A stretch of DNA of 32,000 nucleotides from an uncultured Erysipelotrichaceae bacterium. Its GTDB lineage: Bacteria > Bacillota_I > Bacilli_A > Erysipelotrichales > Erysipelotrichaceae. Positions 5,758 through 32,000 of the stretch are shown here, piece by piece. Position 1 is the first letter of the stretch. Each line of letters starts with the position of its first letter. Below the pieces are notes generated by a model. It did not search any database, had not been told where the DNA came from, and was given only the letters and a program-made list of their open reading frames with translations. A program made the position numbers and the translations under genes. Location: the NCBI GenBank assembly GCA_964401865.1, contig CAYNZZ010000010.1:13316-45315 (forward strand), given 5' to 3'.

Positions 5758-6858
5758 ATGGGTTTAACAGCAGGAATTGTTGGTTTGCCTAATGTGGGGA
5801 AATCAACTCTTTTTAACGCTATTACTAATAGTAAGGTAGAGGCAGCGAATTATCCGTTTGCCACAATAGAACCAAATGTAGGAATTGTTGAAGTTAAAGA
5901 TGAAAGATTAACTAATTTAAGTAAATTATTTGAGCCAGAACGAACAATTTATACGACATTTGAATTCACAGATATTGCCGGACTTGTAAAAGGAGCCAGC
6001 AATGGTGAAGGTTTAGGAAATAAGTTTCTAGCTAATATTCGAGATGTTGATGCAATTTGCCATGTTGTGAGATGTTTCGAAGATAATTCAATCACTCATG
6101 TTTATAATCGCATCGATCCACTTGACGATGTAGAGATAATCAATATGGAATTAATCATGGCCGATTTAACAACTTTAGAAAACAGAGTTAATAAAATAGC
6201 TAAGAAAGCTCAGACTAATGATAGTGAAGCAAAAGCTGAAATGAAGATATTAGAAAAGATTATGACATGTCTAAAAGAGGGCAAGCTCATATCTAGCCTT
6301 GAATTCTCCAAAGAGGAAACAGCTTATATGAAGGCTTATCAGTTTTTGACTTCAAAGCCTGTTATTTATATTGCGAATATTAAAGAAGAAGAAATCAATG
6401 ATCCAACTGTGAACGAAAACTATAATAAGTTAAAGAAATATGCCGATGAAAACAAAGCAGAAGTTGTAGCCATTTCTGCTAAGATCGAAGAAGATTTATC
6501 AGATATGGAAAAGGAAGAAAAATTGGCTTTCTTAAATGATTTGGGCATTAATAGATCGGGTCTTGACGAACTTATTTTGAAAGCTTATAAGACGCTGGGT
6601 TTAAATACTTTCTTTACTGTTGGTAAAGATGAATGTCGCGGCTGGACTTTTAAAGACGGTATGACTGCTCCAGAGTGTGCTGGCGTAATTCATAGCGATT
6701 TTCAAAAAGGTTTCATCAAAGCAGAAGTATTTACATATGAAGATATGATGGAATATCAAAGTGAAGTAAAACTAAAAGAAGCAGGGAAGTTACGTCTTGA
6801 AGGTAAAGACTATATCGCTAAAGATGGTGATATAATGCACTTTAGATTTAATGTTTAA
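5758..6858 (+). CDS. ychF: Redox-regulated ATPase YchF (Obg-family GTPase)
   Basis: The N-terminus [21 protein letters not shown] carries a P-loop and the protein has a C-terminal TGS-like end. I prefer the ATG at 5758 (AGAGG RBS 8 nt upstream) over the GTG at 5749 in the ORF track. Confidence 0.9.
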
Positions 6859-6860
6859 AA

Positions 6861-8045
6861 ATGAAAAGATATTTAGTGGCTGTATCAGGAGGGCCAGACT
6901 CAATGGCTCTTTTGGATACACTAAGAGTAAGAGGATATAATCTTGTAATAGCTCATGTCAATTACAATAAAAGAGATAGCGCTTTAAGAGATATGCTCAT
7001 TGTTAATGAATATGCAAGGAGATATTCGATACCTTTGGTTATTAAAAATGCATTTTCAAAAGATGTGTATGGTAATTTCCAAAACTGGGCTCGTGATTTT
7101 AGATATCATTTTTTTAAAGAAATCTATGATAAATATCATTGTGATGCACTGCTGATAGCTCATCAGGAAGATGATTTAATCGAGACCTATCTCATGCAGA
7201 AAGAAAAAAACCTAAGACCGCATTATTACGGATTAAAAAAAGATAGTTCTTTATATGGTATGATTATTTCACGACCATTATTGAATGTTAAAAGGTCAAC
7301 GATTTTAAGGTATCTAAAAATAAAAAAAATAACATATGGGATTGATGAAAGCAATTTGACTAATGATTATCGTCGTAATCAATTGAGACACGAGATTGTT
7401 GAAAAGATGGATGACGAAAAGAGAAATGAGATATTAAGTGAAATTACATCGCTAAATTATCAATTACTAAAAAAAGAAGAATTGATAAAAAAGACTTTTC
7501 AAGGAGTAAAAAAAATAAGTATTCAAGATTTTTTAAAGTTTGAAGATCAAAAAGGACTTTTGAGATATCTCTTGTACAGTAATTTGAGCGATAAACATCT
7601 TAATAATTTGATTAGAATTATTAAGGATGGCAAGTCATTTGAAGTTAAAATAAAAGATAAATATTTTGTGAAAGAATATGGTTATATCGAAAGTTATGAT
7701 TGTGTAAAATCATATCATTTTAGTTATGATAAATTATGTTATACAAAAGAAAAGTATTTCGCTTTTGTTGATAAAGGTACAAACAAGCAGGCTTTGAGCT
7801 TGTCAAAAGATGATTTTCCTATTACGGTTCGCAATTTTGAAAATGGCGACAAAATAAAAATGCGATATGGAACTAAGAAGGTATCACGTTTTTTTATCGA
7901 CAACAAGATTCCTAGCAAATACCGTAAGATTTGGCCGGTTGTTGTCAACAAGAATCATGAGATAATATTCGTTCCACAAATAGGTGCTAATATCAATCAT
8001 TATTGTACAAATAGCGATTTATTTGTGGTAGAATCTTTATATTAA
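6861..8045 (+). CDS. tilS: tRNA(Ile)-lysidine synthase
   Basis: It has the PP-loop motif VAVSGGPDSMAL and sits in the tilS-hpt-ftsH order conserved in Bacillota. Confidence 0.9.
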   Translation: MKRYLVAVSGGPDSMALLDTLRVRGYNLVIAHVNYNKRDSALRDMLIVNEYARRYSIPLVIKNAFSKDVYGNFQNWARDFRYHFFKEIYDKYHCDALLIAHQEDDLIETYLMQKEKNLRPHYYGLKKDSSLYGMIISRPLLNVKRSTILRYLKIKKITYGIDESNLTNDYRRNQLRHEIVEKMDDEKRNEILSEITSLNYQLLKKEELIKKTFQGVKKISIQDFLKFEDQKGLLRYLLYSNLSDKHLNNLIRIIKDGKSFEVKIKDKYFVKEYGYIESYDCVKSYHFSYDKLCYTKEKYFAFVDKGTNKQALSLSKDDFPITVRNFENGDKIKMRYGTKKVSRFFIDNKIPSKYRKIWPVVVNKNHEIIFVPQIGANINHYCTNSDLFVVESLY

Positions 8046-12409: not shown

Positions 12410-12556
12410 AAAACCTTATCAAGAGCGGTGGAGGGAATAGGCCCAAAGAAACCCGGCAACCTGTTTAGCAAGGTGCTAAATCCTACAGATTTATTCTGGA
12501 AGATGAGGAAATAAATTTTGTTTATTTGCCTCTTCTTTGTGAAGAGGTTTTATATT
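12410..12556 (+). promoter_or_regulatory. SAM-I (S-box) riboswitch with terminator expression platform, leader of metK
   Basis: The aptamer core is cttatcaagagcggtggagggaataggcccaaagaaacccggcaacc...aaggtgctaaatcc...gaagatgagg. It is followed by the terminator cctcttc-tttgt-gaagagg plus a T-run (12528-12556). Confidence 0.9.
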
Positions 12557-15146: not shown

Positions 15147-15220
15147 GCCGATATGGTATAATGGTAACACAAATCCATGGTAAGGATTAGCTCTCAGTTC
15201 AATTCTGGGTATCGGCACCA
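15147..15220 (+). tRNA. tRNA-Thr (anticodon GGU), CCA encoded
   Basis: Folded by hand. Acceptor gccgata/tatcggc; anticodon stem aatcc/ggatt with loop atGGTaa; T-arm ctcag-ttcaatt-ctggg; 3' ACCA. It lies 9 nt after the maf stop. Confidence 0.85.
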
Positions 15221-16580: not shown

Positions 16581-16663
16581 CCGGGCGTGGCGGAATTGGC
16601 AGACGCACCAGACTTAGAATCTGGCGGGTGACCGTGGGGGTTCAAGTCCCTTCGCCCGGACCA
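16581..16663 (+). tRNA. tRNA-Leu (anticodon UAG), CCA encoded
   Basis: Folded by hand. Acceptor ccgggcg/cgcccgg; D-arm gcg-gaattggcaga-cgc; anticodon stem ccaga/tctgg with loop ctTAGaa; long variable arm cgg-gtga-ccg; T-arm ggggg-ttcaagt-ccctt. Confidence 0.9.
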
Positions 16664-24541: not shown

Positions 24542-25843
24542 ATGAAATTAGTAATTAAAAAATACGGAATTAACGGTGAAGGTATTGGGTATGATAAAAA
24601 GATTCCGATTTTTGTGAAGGGCGCTTTGAAAGACGAAGAAGTAGAAGTCAAAATTATTCAAGACTACAAAAAATATAAGATAGCAAAACTGATAAATATA
24701 TATAAGTACAGCAAGGCGAGAGTTAAGGCTAAATGCCCGTATTATGAAAAATGCGGAGCTTGCAGTTTGTTGCATGCATCATATGATGAACAGATTATTT
24801 ATAAGAAGAATACACTCGAAGAGTCTTTACTTAAATATGCGGGTATAGAAGAAAATATTGAGGTTGTTAGAAGTCCTGAACAGTTCAATTATCGAAATAG
24901 TTTTAAATTGCCGGTTAAAGAGGTTAACGGAAAACTTTGTGCCGGATTATATAGCGAAGATTCCAATAGATTTTTAAGAATCGAAAAATGCTTAAATCAT
25001 GATGTATTACTAAACAAAAATCTTAAACAAGTTCTGAATGTTTTAAACAAATATCATATAAAAGCTTATGACAACAAGTCTAAAAGTGGTATTAGATACA
25101 TTACACTTAGAACGATAGATGGAAATTGTGCGTTATGTCTTGTTACAGGTAATGACAAAATAGAAAAAAGCATCGTTGATGAATTGGTTAAGATAAAAGG
25201 AATATCTTCGATTTATCAATCTATTAATATTTCAAAAAGTCAAGAGATATACGGTAATCAAATGATCCATTTGGCACTTAAAAAGAAAATGCCTTTTATG
25301 TTTGATGGACTAAAGATGGAAGTTTCGATTAGATCTTTTATGCAACTTAATACTTTGGCAGCTAATAATATGTATAACTATGTTTCAAACTTAGTTAAGT
25401 TTAATAACGAGCTGATAATTGAAGCGTATTCAGGATTGGGGTTGATGTCTTTTTTGTTGCGCGAAAAAGCCAGAAAGATTGTTGGAATCGAGATTATTAC
25501 TGATGCAGTAAATAACGCCAATAAAAACGCTAAAAATAATGATGTAAATAATTTAGAGTTTATAGCCGGTGATTGTGCAGATATTTTATATCATAAATAT
25601 AGAAACAGCAGTATTGATTATTTAATTGTTGATCCACCAAGAACGGGATTAGATGACAAAATGCTTAATTGTTTAATGAAAGCTAAGATTGATAATATTA
25701 TTTATATTTCGTGCAATCCATCAACATTGAGCAAGGATTTATCCGTTTTAAATGGTAGGTATAAAATTAATTCTATTAAAGCATTTGACTTATTTCCAAA
25801 TACTCAACATGTTGAAAGCGTTGTTTTTTTACGTAGATATTAA
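24542..25843 (+). CDS. RumA/TrmA-family 23S rRNA (uracil-5)-methyltransferase
   Basis: N-terminal TRAM-like region, Fe-S cysteine cluster (CPYYEKCGACSLLH), SAM-binding region (EAYSGLGLMS), DPPRTG, and C-terminal FDLFPNTQHVESVVFL. Confidence 0.85.
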   Translation: MKLVIKKYGINGEGIGYDKKIPIFVKGALKDEEVEVKIIQDYKKYKIAKLINIYKYSKARVKAKCPYYEKCGACSLLHASYDEQIIYKKNTLEESLLKYAGIEENIEVVRSPEQFNYRNSFKLPVKEVNGKLCAGLYSEDSNRFLRIEKCLNHDVLLNKNLKQVLNVLNKYHIKAYDNKSKSGIRYITLRTIDGNCALCLVTGNDKIEKSIVDELVKIKGISSIYQSINISKSQEIYGNQMIHLALKKKMPFMFDGLKMEVSIRSFMQLNTLAANNMYNYVSNLVKFNNELIIEAYSGLGLMSFLLREKARKIVGIEIITDAVNNANKNAKNNDVNNLEFIAGDCADILYHKYRNSSIDYLIVDPPRTGLDDKMLNCLMKAKIDNIIYISCNPSTLSKDLSVLNGRYKINSIKAFDLFPNTQHVESVVFLRRY

Positions 25844-25854
25844 TAGTAAATATT

Positions 25855-25886
25855 TGTTAATAAAAACGACACGTCTATGATATAAA
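25855..25886 (+). promoter_or_regulatory. Candidate promoter of the WYL-cas operon (extended -10)
   Basis: TGaTATAAA (25878-25886) fits an extended -10 element. A TTGTTA at 25855-25860 is 20 nt away, too far to serve as a good -35. This is the only intergenic space upstream of the four coupled genes. Confidence 0.3.
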
Positions 25887-25922
25887 CTTTCTTATAACTT
25901 GATAATAATTTATACTTATTGT

Positions 25923-26891
25923 ATGGGAAGTAGTAACAAGAAAATAATGATTGTTCAATTCATTAAATTGATGAAAAAGTATACTGATTATGATCATCGC
26001 TTATCAATTAAAGAAATAATCAATTTATATAAAGAAGAATATGATGATACTATTTGTAGGCAAGCTATATCAAATTATATTAAAGAACTTGATGAAATAG
26101 GTATAGAAATATTATGCTCTAAATCAAAATATTATTACTCAGATGATAATAGAGATTTAATTGATGCAGAAGTTGAATTATTATGTCACTCTGTAATGTC
26201 TAGCTATGTAATTCCTTTATCATATTCTGAAGATTTAATTAAGAAATTAAAACAAACTCAAAGTATCAAATATATTGCTGAAAATAAGAATTTAGATTTT
26301 AATATCTCTAATATTGACAAAAGAGAAAATAAAGAACTATTTTTAAATTTTGAAACTATATCAAAGGCTATTGATGATAATGTATATATTTCTTTTGACT
26401 ATTTTCGATATAATGCTGATAAAAAACTATGTAAGAATAGAAGTGATTCATATAAGACATTACCGATAAGAACTGTATCGATGCAAAACAAATTCTACTT
26501 AATCACATATAATGAAAAATATAATAGTTTTACTCATTATAGAATTGATAAAATAGGTAATGTTAAGATATTAGAAAAGGCTTCAAAAGTTATTGAAATT
26601 GATCCATATGAGTATACTAAAAATAGATTATATATGTATGGCGGAGATATCGAAACATTTGAATTGTTTGCTGATGAATATATTTTAGATGAAATAATTG
26701 ATTTATTTGGTAAAGAAGTCAAAATAAATAAAAAAGATAACCATTATGTGGTTGAGGTTAAGACAACTAAAGAAGCGATTATATTCTTTGCATGTCAATA
26801 TATCAAACATGTGACAGTAATAAAACCAAATAATATCAAAGAAGAAATAATTGACATTCTTAAAAATAAATTAGATGAATACGTAGATTAA
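25923..26891 (+). CDS. wHTH-WYL-domain transcriptional regulator (BrxR/CapW-like architecture)
   Basis: N-terminal winged HTH (LSIKEIINLYKEEYDDTICRQAISNYIKELDEIGIEI). Central WYL domain (VYISFDYFRYN...KFYLITYNEKYNSFTHYRIDKIGNVKILE). C-terminal extension of about 90 aa. The start is ambiguous: TTG 25899, ATG 25923 or ATG 25947. The stop lies 11 nt before the cas9 ATG. Confidence 0.8.
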   Translation: MGSSNKKIMIVQFIKLMKKYTDYDHRLSIKEIINLYKEEYDDTICRQAISNYIKELDEIGIEILCSKSKYYYSDDNRDLIDAEVELLCHSVMSSYVIPLSYSEDLIKKLKQTQSIKYIAENKNLDFNISNIDKRENKELFLNFETISKAIDDNVYISFDYFRYNADKKLCKNRSDSYKTLPIRTVSMQNKFYLITYNEKYNSFTHYRIDKIGNVKILEKASKVIEIDPYEYTKNRLYMYGGDIETFELFADEYILDEIIDLFGKEVKINKKDNHYVVEVKTTKEAIIFFACQYIKHVTVIKPNNIKEEIIDILKNKLDEYVD

Positions 26892-26902
26892 GGAGAAAGT
26901 TT

Positions 26903-29900
26903 ATGGAAAACAAAAAATATGTTTTGGGATTAGACTTAGGAGTAGCATCTATTGGTTGGGGTTGCGTTACACTAGATGATAATGATATTCCAAATGGAAT
27001 ATTAGATCATGGTGTTGTAACGTTTAAATCATTAGATAACGATAAAGGACAACTTTATAATCAGACAAGAAGAGAAAAGAGAAGTCAGAGAAGAGTAATT
27101 AGAAGACGCAAAGAAAGAATTAGAAGGATTAAGAATTTATTGCTTAATACTTTTGATATGAAAGAAAAAGAATATAATGATCTCTTCCATGCTGAAGGAG
27201 TTTGTCAAGATAATGATATATTGAATTTAAATATTAAAGGACTAAGTGAAGAATTATCTAAGGAACAGCTTATTCGAGTTTTGATTAATTATGCTAAAAA
27301 TAGAGGGTTTAAATCAAATAGAAAAATAAATAGCGATAATGAAAAAGGCAAAATGAAAAAAGCTATCAACAATATAACTGAAGTTAAGAATAAATATAAT
27401 TGTACTATTTCAAAAGCTATCTTGATTTATCAACAAGAGAATAATTTAGATGTTCGCCATAATACTGGAGAGAATTATAATTATGGATTTGAAAGAAATG
27501 ATATTAGAGAAGAAATAGAATTATTATTAGATAAACAAATTGAGTTTGGATTAATCGATGATAATTTTAAAAATAAATATTTAGATATTTGGTCTAGTCA
27601 AAGAGATTTTTCTGAAGGACCAGCAACTGGTCCATATGTAGTACGTTGGGATAAAATGGTAGGAATGTGTAAATTTAGAACTAATGAAAGAAGAATTTCA
27701 AAAGCATGCCCATCATTTGAATTTTTTGCATTAGTGCAAAAGCTACATAATATCACTTATTATGTAATAGATGAGAATAAGGAAATAATTAAAGATAGCA
27801 AAGGTAAAAAAGCGGAGAAGTTTTCTTTAACTAAAGAAGAAATCAATTATTTATTTGAAAAGGCAAAGAAAAGTGATATTAAATATAACGATATTATTGA
27901 ACTTGTAAAGAAAAACCGTCCTGAAAATTATGATATTAGAATCGTGGATATGCCGTCTATCACAAAAAAGAAGTTCAATGACTTGGTAAAAGAATATTAC
28001 AAAGAGAATGATATTAAAGATAGAAAACTGAATGACGATGAATATGCAGAAATAAAATCAAAAGCTTATGAAGAAAGTAAGAAAATCATAGTTTTTGAAT
28101 TAAAGATGTATAAAGAATTCAAAAAACAATTGAAAAAATTGAACAAATCAGAAAAGATTGAAGATATTGAATTTTTAGATTACTCTGCGACAATTTTATC
28201 TTATGCTCAAACAGATGCGAAAATTGATGAATTAGTTAATAGTGAAGAATATGTAGATAGATTAAATAACGAAGAAAAAGAACTAATTAAGAAATTAGAA
28301 ATCAAGACCAAGGGCACTGGAAATCTTTGTTTATCGTTGACTAAGGATTTATTAGATTGTATGTTGGATGGATATAATTATAATGAGGCAATGAAAGAAT
28401 TAGGCTATGATCATTCAGATACAGGTCATAAAGAATTTAAAAATGGTTTCCCAACTGTTCAAGAGATTGAAAGTACTTATGACACTCGATTAACTAATCC
28501 AAATGTTAAACATACTTTAGTCTATTTAAGAAGATTATATAATACATTAAATAAAAAATATGGCGAACCATATAGAGTTCATATTGAATTAGCTAGAGAC
28601 ATATCTAAAAGTTATACCGATAGATTAGAAATTAGAAGAAATCAATTAGATAATTATTCAAGTCGACAAAGTGCAAAGCTTGAAATGTTTGAAGAATTGG
28701 GTTTATCTGATATTGAAAATAGAAAGTATCCAAGCTTTAGCAATGATGATATTTTAAAATTTAGATTATGGGAAGAACAGAAACATATTTGTCCATATTC
28801 TGGAAGAGAAATTAGTCGAAATGAACTATTAACAAGCATGGATTTACATGTTGATCACATCTTACCATTCTCAAGATCATTTGATGATAGCTATACAAAT
28901 AAAGTATTAGTATATGTTAAGGCTAATGAAGATAAAGGTAACAAGACGCCATATGAATGGTTCGGGAAAGATAAAGCTAGATGGAATGCATTCAAAGATA
29001 GAATTAGAGATAATAAGAATTATAGTGAGAAAAAGATCAATAATCTATTAAATGAAGATGAAGTTACATTTGATGAATTTTCATCTAGAAGTTTAAATGC
29101 AACTACATATATGAGCAAATTAGCATTAAATATCTTTAAAGATTTGCTTAATAAAGAAGATGGAGATGATCGTGTACTTGCGTTTAAAGGTGGTGCCACA
29201 TCATTCTTAAGAAAATATTATCGATTAAATAATTGTATTCATTCGTTTGCTTCTAAAAATTACCGAAATACCGATATTGTATATATTATCGATGAAGATA
29301 ATGTTGTAAGTACTTATAAGAATAATGAAGTATCATTTACAATTAGTGCCTTAGATAAATATGGAAATGTATTAGAATATGAATTCAAACTTAAAAATGA
29401 TTCAAAAAAACCATTAACAGGCGAAGATAAAGATAATTATGATTTAATAAAATATCATTCAAGCGAATTGAAAGAATATTTTATAGATAATATCTGTGGT
29501 AAAGACATAAATAAGATTGATGATTTTAGATTGCTTTCTTATATGAAGGAAGATGAAAATAATAAGATTTTAGTCGCTTTTGCATTTGATGCATTAAATA
29601 AATTAAAAGCAAAACTTATTGAGAAGAATAGAAATAATAATCTTCATCATGAAGTTGATGCCTTATTGGTAGCAACAATGACTAGAAGTATGCAAATGAA
29701 AATTACTAAGTTTACTAAATTGATTAGATCGAATAAGTTTACCGATCCCGATACTGGTGAGCATTATGACAACATTGATGCGTTGACTAATAAATACAAT
29801 ATTGATACAGCAATCAAAGATAAAAGATATTATATGCCTCAACCATATGATCATTTCGTTGATGAACTCATAATAAGGGTATTTGAAAGAGATGAAAAAG

Positions 29901-30727
29901 TTTTAAATGAAAAGTTAACTAATCTTTTAGGATATCAAACAAATGCAAAAGTAAAATATCCGTCATTCCAAGCAGATAAAAAAGTTTCTGGCGCATTACA
30001 TGAAGAAACCATATTCGGTAGAAGAAAATTATACGGCAAAGATGTAATGGTTCTTAGAAAATCTGTCTTTGATATCAAAGAAAAAGATCTTAAAAATATT
30101 TATGATGGCGATGGTGGTCAAGCTCCAGTTAAACAAGCATTAATAGAATGGTTTAAGTTGACAGAAAAAGATCGTAAAGAACAACGATATCCTATTCATC
30201 CAAAAACTGGACAGTATATTAAAAAAATCAAGATGATTGGTGATGATATTAATAAAATGGTTAGAATTTCTAAAGATGATGAATCTAAAGGTTACGCAGG
30301 TATTGGAAAAGTAGCTAGAATTCAAATCTATAAAAAAGAAGATGATGATAAACTATACTATGTTCAATTATCAACAATTCAATATATGAAGAGAAAGAAT
30401 AATGATTTTGATTTTACTATTACTGTTTGGTGGGGGCAAGGCAATTCTAAAGAATACTTATTATATAGCGAGCTTGAGAATAAAGGCTATAAACTATATT
30501 TAGAATTATATCCTGGACAAATCATTTATATTGGAGACGAATTTGGTGGTAATCTTGTGAAGACGATCGGTTTTACAAGCGGACAATTCAAAATAGGTTC
30601 TGTGATCGGTGATGGAATAGATTTAATCGAAAATAAAATCCAAAACAAAATTAAACCTGAATATTATTTAACAGCTCCTAAAAAAATAAGTATTGGTAAC
30701 ATAGATATATTAGGTTATGTCTTATAG
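26903..30727 (+). CDS. cas9: Type II CRISPR-associated endonuclease Cas9 (1274 aa)
   Basis: RuvC-I YVLGLDLGVASIGWG (D11). Arg-rich bridge helix RREKRSQRRVIRRRKERIRRIKNLL. RuvC-II VHIELARD (E562). HNH VDHILPFSRSFDDSYTNKVLV...NKGNKTPYEW (H652, N666). RuvC-III NLHHEVDALLVA (H916, D919). An AGGAG RBS lies upstream. Confidence 0.95.
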   Translation: MENKKYVLGLDLGVASIGWGCVTLDDNDIPNGILDHGVVTFKSLDNDKGQLYNQTRREKRSQRRVIRRRKERIRRIKNLLLNTFDMKEKEYNDLFHAEGVCQDNDILNLNIKGLSEELSKEQLIRVLINYAKNRGFKSNRKINSDNEKGKMKKAINNITEVKNKYNCTISKAILIYQQENNLDVRHNTGENYNYGFERNDIREEIELLLDKQIEFGLIDDNFKNKYLDIWSSQRDFSEGPATGPYVVRWDKMVGMCKFRTNERRISKACPSFEFFALVQKLHNITYYVIDENKEIIKDSKGKKAEKFSLTKEEINYLFEKAKKSDIKYNDIIELVKKNRPENYDIRIVDMPSITKKKFNDLVKEYYKENDIKDRKLNDDEYAEIKSKAYEESKKIIVFELKMYKEFKKQLKKLNKSEKIEDIEFLDYSATILSYAQTDAKIDELVNSEEYVDRLNNEEKELIKKLEIKTKGTGNLCLSLTKDLLDCMLDGYNYNEAMKELGYDHSDTGHKEFKNGFPTVQEIESTYDTRLTNPNVKHTLVYLRRLYNTLNKKYGEPYRVHIELARDISKSYTDRLEIRRNQLDNYSSRQSAKLEMFEELGLSDIENRKYPSFSNDDILKFRLWEEQKHICPYSGREISRNELLTSMDLHVDHILPFSRSFDDSYTNKVLVYVKANEDKGNKTPYEWFGKDKARWNAFKDRIRDNKNYSEKKINNLLNEDEVTFDEFSSRSLNATTYMSKLALNIFKDLLNKEDGDDRVLAFKGGATSFLRKYYRLNNCIHSFASKNYRNTDIVYIIDEDNVVSTYKNNEVSFTISALDKYGNVLEYEFKLKNDSKKPLTGEDKDNYDLIKYHSSELKEYFIDNICGKDINKIDDFRLLSYMKEDENNKILVAFAFDALNKLKAKLIEKNRNNNLHHEVDALLVATMTRSMQMKITKFTKLIRSNKFTDPDTGEHYDNIDALTNKYNIDTAIKDKRYYMPQPYDHFVDELIIRVFERDEKVLNEKLTNLLGYQTNAKVKYPSFQADKKVSGALHEETIFGRRKLYGKDVMVLRKSVFDIKEKDLKNIYDGDGGQAPVKQALIEWFKLTEKDRKEQRYPIHPKTGQYIKKIKMIGDDINKMVRISKDDESKGYAGIGKVARIQIYKKEDDDKLYYVQLSTIQYMKRKNNDFDFTITVWWGQGNSKEYLLYSELENKGYKLYLELYPGQIIYIGDEFGGNLVKTIGFTSGQFKIGSVIGDGIDLIENKIQNKIKPEYYLTAPKKISIGNIDILGYVL

Positions 30728-31634
30728 ACAAATATTGATTCAAAAGAAATGCCATTTGTCTATAGAAAATAGTAATATCAAAATCAAAAGAGACGATATT
30801 GTAAATAGTATACCTTCAGAAGATGTAGCTATAATTGTAGTAGATTGTATAGATATAACATTTAGCGCCCCATTCTTTAATGAATGTTCAAAGGAAGGTA
30901 TTGTTGTGTTGATATGCGGAAATAAGCATTATCCAGTTATGCAAGCTTTACCTATCAATTCACATTATAGACTATATGATATTTTATTGATGCAGGTTAA
31001 ACAGTCCAATTATTTCAAAGAAACAGTAACTGAACAATTATTGAAAGCTAAATTAGCGAATCAAAAGAAAGTATTGGAATTAATTGGCGCAGATGCAGAT
31101 AAAATAGAAATGTTCAATACATATATTGGTGAAATAACGGGTCATGATGATATCAATAGAGAAGGTACTGCCGCAAAAGTTTTCTTTAATGCATTATATG
31201 AGCAAGAATATACTAGATTTGAATCAGATCCAATTAATGCAGTTCAAAATTATGGGTATGCAATATTAAGCTCAAGTATTTCAAGAAGTCTTAGCTTATT
31301 AGGTTTTAATTTATGTATAGGTGTAAATCATGAGGGCCATACTAATCCATTTAATCTAACATACGATATGATTGAACCATTTAGAGCCATAGTTGATTAT
31401 TATATTTACGAAATGAGAAATACACTAACTGATGAATTAAATGTACAGACAAAAAAAGAATTGGTTAATCTATTGAATATTAAAGTTAAAGTAAACGGAG
31501 TTTTATATACAGTACAATACGCCATTGATTTATTATGTAAATCATATTTAAGAATGCTTGAATATGGAAAAGATGAATTAGATTTACCAGAAATAGTTAA
31601 AACGGATTTTTTAAAAGAAAATGAGTTCATATAG
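30717..31634 (+). CDS. cas1: CRISPR-associated integrase Cas1 (type II)
   Basis: The sequence NREGTAAKVFFNALY...INAVQNYGYAILSS...GVNHEGHTNPFNLTYDMIEPFR closely parallels type II Cas1 with the catalytic Glu/His/Glu intact. It overlaps cas9 by 11 nt. Confidence 0.9.
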   Translation: MSYRQILIQKKCHLSIENSNIKIKRDDIVNSIPSEDVAIIVVDCIDITFSAPFFNECSKEGIVVLICGNKHYPVMQALPINSHYRLYDILLMQVKQSNYFKETVTEQLLKAKLANQKKVLELIGADADKIEMFNTYIGEITGHDDINREGTAAKVFFNALYEQEYTRFESDPINAVQNYGYAILSSSISRSLSLLGFNLCIGVNHEGHTNPFNLTYDMIEPFRAIVDYYIYEMRNTLTDELNVQTKKELVNLLNIKVKVNGVLYTVQYAIDLLCKSYLRMLEYGKDELDLPEIVKTDFLKENEFI

Positions 31635-31953
31635 AGAAATGAGAATGTTTGTCATATTCGATTTACCTACTCTTACTAAAGACGATAGGAAGGTATATAG
31701 CAAATTTAGAGATAATATTCTAGAAGACGGTTTTATTATGATTCAATATTCTGTATATTCAAGATATTGTAGAAATGATACGGAATATTTAAAAATATTA
31801 CGAAGAATAAAAAACTATGCGCCTAGGGATACTGGGAATATAAGAATATTTAAAGTTACAGAAAAACAATATGAAAATATGACAGTATTTTCAAACTGTA
31901 TAAAGTCAGATGAGAAGCTTTTATCTACTAGTCCTCTAGTAGTAATAGATTAG
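31621..31953 (+). CDS. cas2: CRISPR-associated endoribonuclease Cas2 (type II)
   Basis: MSSYREMRMFVIFDLPTLTKDDRKVYSKFRDNILEDGFIMIQYSVYSRY parallels the start of type II Cas2 proteins. It overlaps cas1 by 14 nt. Confidence 0.9.
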   Translation: MSSYREMRMFVIFDLPTLTKDDRKVYSKFRDNILEDGFIMIQYSVYSRYCRNDTEYLKILRRIKNYAPRDTGNIRIFKVTEKQYENMTVFSNCIKSDEKLLSTSPLVVID

Positions 31954-32000
31954 AATTAATGATAGAATATGGTTATCCGTAACGAGTTAATTATGAAATT

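Follow-up and report, generated by a model that had tools for sequence, protein, structure and literature searches.

The subject of this analysis is wyl, a gene that encodes a winged helix-turn-helix (wHTH)-WYL-WCX protein and stands directly in front of cas9, cas1 and cas2 in an uncultured Erysipelotrichaceae bacterium (GenBank assembly GCA_964401865.1, contig CAYNZZ010000010.1, positions 13,316 to 45,315). This stretch of 32,000 nucleotides (nt) is referred to as the window, and positions are those of the window unless another locus is named. The wyl gene is packed with the three cas genes into one operon-like block, homologues of its product recur beside cas9 genes, and a palindrome is conserved upstream of these homologues. 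It very probably controls when the CRISPR system is switched on. The mechanism that we favour, and hold to be somewhat better than an even prospect, is that the WYL protein controls transcription of wyl-cas9-cas1-cas2, its own gene included, and would bind an operator upstream of that gene, probably as a repressor that is released by single-stranded DNA (ssDNA).

A first-pass annotation of this DNA, made from the sequence, described WYL proteins as established regulators of defence loci, and the literature agrees for bacteriophage exclusion (BREX) systems, cyclic oligonucleotide-based anti-phage signalling systems (CBASS) and type I CRISPR systems. It also named no characterised WYL partner of a Cas9 system, and a literature search likewise found none described. 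Among the papers that were searched, none describes or characterises a WYL gene from a type II or Cas9 locus; survey tables may list such cases. The principle is not new, as WYL regulators beside defence systems, including CRISPR-Cas, are well documented. WYL regulators were predicted for CRISPR-Cas by Makarova et al. in 2014 (PMC4012209), CRISPR-Cas accompanies BrxR homologues in 21 of 210 cases (PMC9122601), and a 2026 survey counts 13,508 WYL proteins adjacent to defence systems, in 47 clusters, the majority uncharacterised (PMC13622015). What is new here is an uncharacterised WYL cluster, its Cas9-operon cargo and an operator candidate, while the class of defence regulators is already known.

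Operon packing of wyl with the cas genes

The wyl gene is tightly joined to the cas genes that follow it (Table 1). A gap of 11 nt separates its stop codon from the cas9 ATG, and this gap contains a ribosome binding site, AAGGAG, that overlaps the TAA and is located 7 nt before the ATG. The coding regions of cas9 and cas1 overlap by 11 nt and those of cas1 and cas2 by 14 nt. The 11-nt gap and the two overlaps had been given in the first-pass annotation, and the same values were obtained from the list of open reading frames (ORFs) and the raw sequence, as was its statement that the spacer in front of wyl is the only upstream intergenic space of the block. The operon-like packing that it described was also found, as the junctions are tight and a scan detected no terminator-like site in 25700-27200. 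A consensus scan identified no strong promoter on the plus strand within the wyl gene, and the 11-nt junction is too short to hold a cas9 promoter of its own. The start codon assigned to wyl, ATG 25923, agrees with the N-termini of homologues in an alignment.

Domain architecture and family of the WYL protein

The wyl product is a member of the wHTH-WYL-WCX superfamily and belongs to a large family rather than a rare one. The architecture proposed from the translation (a wHTH, a WYL domain and a C-terminal extension) has been confirmed by profile searches, structure prediction and a fold search. A profile search had been suggested as a check of this assignment; it placed the WYL domain above the Pfam gathering score, with PF13280 matching residues 143-215 at 1.3e-9 (38.3 bits versus a cutoff of 21.8), while the HTH comes from the predicted structure, as the wHTH is weak by sequence (Pfam HTH_11, E 0.038, below cutoff). 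Additionally, the PADLOC model 'WYL, CAS associated_signaling' matches the wyl product at 1.1e-18.

An AlphaFold model of the protein was built from a 12-member family alignment and has a mean predicted local distance difference test score (pLDDT) of 77.7. The model contains a wHTH at approximately residues 1-72, made up of three helices and a beta-hairpin at 6-72 (pLDDT 83-93), a helical and poorly defined linker (about 81-151), a WYL beta-barrel (about 154-219) and an alpha/beta C-terminal WCX domain (about 243-321, pLDDT about 86-91). The barrel carries the signature FYLIT...HYRIDKI, and the motif FYL...HYRID is conserved across the family alignment. All 32 matches returned by Foldseek from the PDB at E<=1e-3 are wHTH-WYL-WCX proteins, the best E-values being 1.7e-12 for PafBC, 1.6e-9 for DriD, 1.3e-7 for CapW, 5e-7 for WYL1 (6oaw) and 5e-6 for BrxR, and the alignments to PafBC, DriD, CapW and BrxR run full length. 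When a sequence profile was compared with the PDB, only the C-terminal half of DriD (2.7e-6) and PafC were significant, and the hidden Markov model alignment with the DriD C-domain extends to residue 314. In the favoured mechanism, the 322-amino-acid (aa) protein would act as a dimeric wHTH-WYL-WCX transcription factor.

Results from studies of related proteins point to ssDNA as a candidate ligand, as CapW, DriD and PafBC bind ssDNA via the WYL domain (PMC11662680, PMC9186387, PMC11804915). The residues of DriD that touch ssDNA include Arg178, Tyr192, Arg204, Trp206 and Arg207 (PMC9186387), and the family-invariant side chains Y192, Y206 and R207 align with Tyr192, Trp206 and Arg207. The wyl ORF is intact and has kept all of the family-invariant residues.

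An exhaustive HMMER search yielded 2324 cluster representatives at E<=1e-30, with proteins of about 325 aa. It had been considered that the family might be small and dedicated to Cas9, since a word-indexed search gave 14 matches; following the exhaustive search this claim was narrowed to the subfamily with at least 35% identity. A phage or plasmid origin of wyl was also considered and set aside, as the WYL alignment detected no relative when viral contigs were scanned with it. One family member, P0010 (526 aa), has an extension of about 200 aa past the WCX domain that carries a CPWC motif and may be thioredoxin-like.

Linkage of WYL genes to cas9 loci

Close WYL homologues (35-52% identity) adjoin three different Cas9 subfamilies, and at least five independent lineages have a WYL homologue beside Cas9. 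The fetched loci are denoted here by L numbers. L035, a contig that is 99% identical, carries the same wyl-cas locus. The WYL gene is directly upstream of cas9 and co-directional with it in L001, L033 and L079. In L001, an Erysipelotrichaceae metagenome-assembled genome (MAG), the WYL gene is followed by 47 nt with a hairpin, by cas9 (50% identity), cas1 and cas2, and by a 21-repeat array; in L033 it overlaps by 11 nt the gene of a 1332-aa Cas9 of another subfamily, which precedes cas1 and cas2; and in L079, where the locus adjoins a tRNA gene, cas9 begins 1 nt past the WYL stop. A different layout is present in L041-45 and L047, from human gut metagenomes, in which the WYL gene is divergent from a HIRAN-cas9-cas1-cas2 operon and the Cas9 is compact (1096 or 1194 aa). 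A neighbour-joining tree of the close WYL family has a Cas9-linked member in every subclade. The housekeeping flanks vary among the wyl-cas loci (trmA-like, pheST, tRNA), and the WYL-cas block thus moves as a unit.

The family is not confined to Cas9 loci. In L034 a WYL gene stands alone between rplA and rplJ, and tblastn found no match to a Cas9 remnant in the 1-kb ORF-less gap past this orphan. In L036 a WYL gene precedes one unidentified gene. In L078 (1215-3376) a WYL gene with a perfect TGTTAA-N6-TTAACA is followed by genes for a 143-aa RelA/SpoT-type HD hydrolase and for a DUF262/GmrSD-like protein (PADLOC Orf5/HEC-06/SspE-like, 3e-32); this cargo indicates that the regulator-plus-operator cassette is modular. 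No cas genes were found near WYL homologues at 25-31% identity. As the gene is recurrent yet dispensable at type II loci, its distribution is what a regulator, rather than a core component, would be expected to show. The first-pass annotation had proposed conserved synteny as a check on the pairing, and the outcome is positive, since the linkage recurs across lineages, though patchy, the gene being absent from four of the nearest Cas9 relatives. Judged from the compared loci, the adjacency of wyl and cas9 is not accidental.

Two further arrangements were noted. In three Bacteroidaceae MAGs a gene for a distant WYL protein of about 300 aa (about 5e-15 with Pfam WYL) is located upstream of, and co-directional with, the gene of a 1223-aa Cas9 (Table 1), an independent instance of the linkage in another phylum. 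In the human gut loci the cas operon opens with a gene for a HIRAN-domain protein of about 100 aa (L041 6331-6636, minus strand, Pfam 3.9e-10; L047 6552-6854, minus strand, 5.5e-8). HIRAN domains bind 3' DNA ends, and we know of no description of a HIRAN-domain gene in a Cas9 operon.

A conserved palindrome and the putative promoter

Comparison of the DNA upstream of WYL genes revealed an 18-bp palindrome, TGTTAA-N6-TTAACA. The core of this palindrome, GTTAA-N6-TTAAC, is present in 7 copies across the fetched loci, which total 821 kb, and all but one of these are located 71-109 nt before WYL start codons (L001, L033, L034, L036, L078 and L079), each with a -10-like hexamer within a few nt after it. 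The core was not found in the four WYL-less Cas9 loci L074-L077. The palindrome stays with the regulator despite non-Cas9 cargo (L078, L036, L034), which argues that it is the regulator's own operator, and we infer that the WYL protein binds DNA at this site.

The corresponding site in the window is an operator-like element with one good half (Table 1), as no complete palindrome was found in the window with up to 2 mismatches allowed. The palindrome precedes the WYL gene in 6 of 7 lineages. The left half-site, TGTTAA, sits inside the 14-mer TTTGTTAATAAAAA (25853-25866) and overlaps the -35-like TTGTTA of the putative operon promoter. The alignment of the window with L079 has GTTAATAAAA followed by GTTAAC versus ACGACA; the same comparison (GTTAATAAAAGTTAAC versus GTTAATAAAAACGACA) shows that the right half was altered by substitution in a promoter homologous between the two loci, which share a -10 region, GAT(A)ATATAAA(T/C), after the operator. 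The claim that the protein regulates Cas9 expression is consequently strengthened in one respect, as a palindromic operator candidate supports a transcription-factor role, and left weaker in another, as the operator is half intact here. A possible second inverted half-site at 25931-25939 was judged too weak and was not used.

Several -10-like hexamers are present upstream of wyl, and none is preferred with confidence. One of them, TATACT 25911-25916, has the position expected for a transcript without a leader that begins at the wyl ATG. In L001, L033 and L034 clear hairpin terminators precede the operator, unlike in 25844-25922 of the window.

The seventh palindrome is a full copy (AGTTAATGTTTATTAACA) located at 17420-17437 of L001, inside the 3' end of a Csn2-like gene. 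At 7300-7313 of L035, in codons homologous to the L001 site, the 14-mer of the window occurs again, where about 0.003 matches are expected by composition. These second operator-like sites are located about 70-100 nt upstream of the trans-activating CRISPR RNA (tracrRNA) or its promoter in L001 and L035. The codons of the second site encode a conserved F-[IV]-N-[RK], and coding constraint may explain part of the similarity. The position of a second operator near the tracrRNA is suggestive only, and would perhaps put the tracrRNA under the WYL regulator.

Proposed mechanism and competing explanations

In the favoured mechanism, wyl would be the first gene of one wyl-cas9-cas1-cas2 transcript, and the WYL protein would bind the operator over the -35 and spacer of a single promoter before its own gene, thereby setting the levels of WYL itself, Cas9 and the adaptation genes. 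Repression would most likely be the resting state. The WYL/WCX pocket would then bind a nucleic-acid-derived ligand, most probably ssDNA arising from phage infection, DNA damage or the processing of cleaved DNA, and repression would be released, so that defence and spacer uptake would be boosted on demand. A BrxR-like arrangement would be expected to show the combination found here of a first-cistron regulator, an 11-nt junction, the lack of a terminator, a family-specific palindrome over the -35 and spacer of the putative promoter and the same cassette before other defence genes. Repression relieved by ssDNA is favoured because BrxR and CapW bind to inverted repeats in promoters of neighbouring defence operons and repress them (PMC9122601, PMC11662680), because ssDNA that arises upon DNA damage releases CapW (PMC11662680), and because restricted phage infection is a natural cue for WYL-type de-repression according to a 2026 preprint (PMC13622015).

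A number of findings weigh against this mechanism. The closest structural and sequence relatives, PafBC and DriD, are activators, and as the DriD site too overlaps the -35, the geometry cannot separate repression from activation (PMC13004042). Arg178 and Arg204 of DriD align with Tyr and Thr in this family, leaving the ligand uncertain. The RWHVR motif of CapW and BrxR is not present; the family has (K/R)FYLI, in which the second arginine is absent, and consequently represents a separate cluster within the wHTH-WYL-WCX superfamily. In the window and L035 the right half-site is destroyed (CGACAC for TTAACA), and binding may be weak or differ. The promoter calls are weak in this AT-rich DNA, with 21 found versus 13.6 expected from shuffles, and the wyl start has no Shine-Dalgarno sequence. 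The methyltransferase gene upstream has no 3' terminator, so that read-through into the wyl-cas9 operon is possible. Finally, no upstream WYL gene is present for P0016 (54%), P0023 (43%), P0028 (39%) and P0040 (36%), which are the closest Cas9 relatives with enough flanking DNA.

The same relatives suggest another mode of control, in which the protein is an activator similar to DriD and PafBC, and in which the ssDNA-bound form, at the -35 of a promoter with no good -35 element, would recruit RNA polymerase so that the operon and its regulator are switched on by damage or infection. This is a genuine possibility, although clearly a less probable one than repression. It would account for PafBC and DriD outranking CapW and BrxR in both fold and sequence matches, for the conservation of the ssDNA-contact positions (Y192, an aromatic residue at 206 and R207) and for the poor -35-like hexamer within the operator in L033, L036, L078 and L079; DriD sites moreover overlap the -35 at a fixed distance from the -10, and the geometry is the same here (PMC13004042). 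In the window, L001 and L034, however, the left half-site gives a reasonable -35 (TTGTTA), and occupancy should compete with sigma. The regulator-first, co-directional layout matches that of BrxR-BREX, and the characterised WYL factors beside defence operons (BrxR, CapW, Sll7009 and the V. cholerae WYL proteins) are all repressors (PMC9122601, PMC11662680, PMC4012209, PMC13622015).

The remaining explanations take Cas9 expression out of the hands of wyl. The first-pass annotation had allowed for a direct accessory role, and the protein could resemble WYL1 for Cas13d by binding Cas9, the CRISPR RNA/tracrRNA or the target, and by modulating cleavage or acquisition. The stimulation of Cas13d by WYL1 is a precedent (PMC5935466), 6oaw is among the fold matches, the arrangement of stop and start codons suggests that its synthesis is roughly coupled to that of Cas9, and the linkage reaches three Cas9 subfamilies. 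Yet the protein has a wHTH, a conserved palindrome is located upstream of its gene, the same subfamily and palindrome head non-Cas cargo (L078, L036) or nothing (L034), close Cas9 orthologues lack wyl, and the divergent layout in L041-47 is typical of regulators, all of which makes an accessory function highly improbable. It is also unlikely, if less so, that the adjacency is meaningless for Cas9, with wyl as a self-contained, mobile regulator cassette that arrived upstream of cas9 and with either cas9 having signals of its own or the regulator no longer functional here. A half-destroyed operator in this lineage, a patchy distribution among Cas9 relatives and a family of 2324 representatives, most of whose distant members lie away from cas genes, could be read in this way. 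Such a reading has difficulty with an 11-nt gap that is too small for a cas9 promoter, with the lack of a strong plus-strand promoter or terminator in wyl, with the intact wyl ORF and its family-invariant residues, with a linkage that recurs with different flanks and Cas9 subfamilies, and with a half-operator 14-mer of which the locus retains two copies.

One can also envisage a feedback loop that is particular to type II immunity, although we regard it as rather doubtful. In such a loop, WYL would sense the ssDNA produced by Cas9 cleavage of an invader and helicase-nuclease resection and would raise cas9-cas1-cas2, and the second site might raise transcription of the tracrRNA or csn2 region. 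If this is true, an infection-primed burst of interference and spacer acquisition would result, and the repeated association of one WYL subfamily with three Cas9 subfamilies would point to a module devoted to Cas9 control rather than to a general regulator of defence islands.

To our knowledge, the way in which Cas9 levels are set in native hosts is poorly understood. The chief mechanism characterised so far acts through RNA and is the self-repression that a long tracrRNA mediates in S. pyogenes. If the favoured mechanism of an ssDNA-released repressor is true, a ligand-sensing protein switch would be a second, signal-dependent way of controlling Cas9, and the defence-associated WYL regulators of BREX, CBASS and type I CRISPR systems would extend to type II systems of class 2. 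Inducible Cas9 expression could also make use of a small regulator/operator pair that responds to ssDNA. Natural variants are available with an intact operator (L001, L079), with a half operator (the window), with a divergent layout (L041-47) and as WYL-less sisters (L074-77). With these variants and a defined candidate operator, the idea is directly testable.

Comparison with known systems

BrxR and CapW share with the wyl product the three-domain architecture, a gene directly upstream of or divergent from a defence operon, an inverted-repeat operator in the promoter region (here a candidate) and a varied defence cargo that includes CRISPR-Cas. They differ in that identity is about 9-13% in the fold alignments, in which they rank behind PafBC and DriD, in having RWHVR where the present family has (K/R)FYLI, and in their operator sequences. 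The cargo is also different, being a type II-A Cas9 operon here, a cargo that the BrxR survey did not report; the CRISPR matches examined in that survey were type I/V-related markers. DriD (Caulobacter) and PafBC (Actinobacteria) are the best structural matches and the only significant sequence matches in the PDB, and they resemble the wyl product in length (about 320-330 aa), in a site (here a candidate) at the -35 position and in the conserved Tyr192, aromatic 206 and Arg207. In contrast to the role proposed for wyl, they activate DNA-damage regulons, not an adjacent defence operon; their Arg178 and Arg204 are not conserved here, and PafBC is a heterodimer or fusion.

Sll7009 of Synechocystis is similar in being a WYL regulator that is tied to a CRISPR-Cas locus (type I-D) and acts negatively (PMC4012209). 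It differs in belonging to a class 1 system and in not being the first gene of an effector operon. WYL1 (RspWYL1, type VI-D Cas13d) is likewise a WYL protein beside a class 2 effector, with the 6oaw fold match noted above. In contrast, WYL1 stimulates its effector, binds single-stranded RNA (PMC9122601) and is not known as a promoter-binding protein. The predicted wHTH, the candidate operator and the variable cargo found here point to transcription control, unlike WYL1. A long tracrRNA form, tracr-L, was reportedly described by Workman in 2021 as an RNA-guided Cas9 repressor that autoregulates the S. pyogenes cas9 operon. Both tracr-L and the WYL protein would hold a type II-A cas9-cas1-cas2-csn2 operon low until needed, the former by RNA-guided Cas9 repression and the latter as a protein transcription factor.

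Array, Csn2-like gene and tracrRNA beyond the window

The window ends 47 nt after cas2, at the start of a CRISPR leader (Table 1), and no CRISPR array was found within it. The assignments of csn2, array and tracrRNA are read from L035 (99%-identical) and L001, outside the window. The array begins about 28 nt past the window end (L035 6261, equivalent to window position 32028). L035 has two 36-nt repeats (GTTACGGAGTCCTGAAGTATTGATTTAGTGATTAAC) after a leader with a GC-rich hairpin, and L001 has 21 repeats; at the leader place equivalent to the extended -10 of the window, L001 has TGATATAAT, followed by a hairpin and the first repeat. The Csn2-like protein of L035 is a 317-aa P-loop protein (6448-7401; PADLOC Csn2 PDLC01597, 3.8e-15), and PADLOC Csn2 matches were also obtained in L001 (1.3e-17), L075 (3e-26) and L077 (2e-116). 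The tracrRNA of L035 is on the plus strand and consists of a TATAAT promoter at 7368-7373, an anti-repeat, a nexus-like hairpin and a terminator (fold z -5.7). The anti-repeat/repeat duplexes are -42.5 and -40.5 kcal/mol in L035 and L001, respectively.

The first-pass annotation had placed wyl in the position normally taken by the tracrRNA. This proposal was dropped, since the tracrRNA lies beyond the array and the Csn2-like gene; in the window there is no Rfam match to a tracrRNA, and the sole anti-repeat that a duplex scan gave in L035 and L001 lies downstream of their Csn2-like genes. Normally, csn2 precedes the array. Judged from its gene order, the locus is a type II-A variant with the array between cas2 and csn2 and the tracrRNA at the far end.

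In L035 6261-7495 (window-equivalent about 32028-33262) and L001 15170-17640, the order on the same strand is cas2, leader, array, Csn2-like gene and tracrRNA. The Csn2-like proteins of L035 and L001 (317 and 323 aa) have an intact Walker A motif. Comparison of the leaders (window 31975-32000 and L035 6208-6262; L001 15130-15172) shows a short leader segment complementary to the repeat start. The window type has TCCGTAAC there and L001 has TCCGTAC, co-varying with GTTACGGA and GTACGGA. The GC-rich leader hairpin abuts the first repeat. The window-type leader also contains GTTAAT-N6-ATTAAC, an operator-like palindrome with a spacing that is 2 bp too long.

Feature coordinates and flanking DNA

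Table 1. Coordinates of the wyl-cas locus, its candidate control elements and the distant WYL genes of Bacteroidaceae
Feature	Position	Strand	Details	Evidence
TRAM-domain / tRNA-U5-methyltransferase-like (trmA-like) gene	24542-25843		upstream neighbour	Pfam
Spacer	25844-25922 (79 nt)		sole upstream intergenic space of the four-gene block	
Operator-like element (candidate)	25853-25872	.	left half TGTTAA 25855-25860; degenerate right half CGACAC 25867-25872	
Putative operon promoter	25854-25886	+	TTGTTA 25854-25859, 16 nt spacer, TATGAT 25876-25881	9/12 consensus
Alternative extended -10 (putative)	25878-25886	+	TGaTATAAA	consensus match
wyl gene, wHTH-WYL-WCX protein	ATG 25923, TAA 26889-26891	+	322 aa	profiles, model, fold search
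WYL-cas9 junction	26890-26902	+	Shine-Dalgarno AAGGAG 26890-26895, GGAG 26892-26895	
cas9	ATG 26903, end 30727	+	1274 aa, HNH + RuvC-III	TIGR01865 5e-150
cas1, type II Cas1	30717-31634	+	305 aa	TIGR03639 2.5e-67
cas2	31621-31953	+	110 aa	TIGR01573 2e-21, Pfam
CRISPR leader start	31960-32000	+	extended -10 TGATAGAAT 31960-31968	
Distant Bacteroidaceae WYL genes	L012 1116-2027, L031 8998-9882, L032 5102-6013		about 115-120 nt before cas9	

The 3' part of wyl contains a near-consensus sigma-70-like promoter on the minus strand (26806-26778, TTGATA-17-TATAAT, 11/12), which would yield an antisense transcript; a chance occurrence is possible in AT-rich DNA. L035 is almost identical to the window from 25814 on and diverges sharply to the left of this point (window 25768-25813 versus L035 1-46); the divergence point falls in the last codons of the methyltransferase gene and looks like a recombination or island boundary. 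The GC content is 24-29% in the cas region and 30-35% in the flank. Elsewhere in the window, a SAM (S-adenosylmethionine) riboswitch (RF00162, 78.6 bits) and two tRNA genes, at 12413-12509, 15147-15217 and 16581-16660, are ordinary chromosomal features that are unrelated to the locus.

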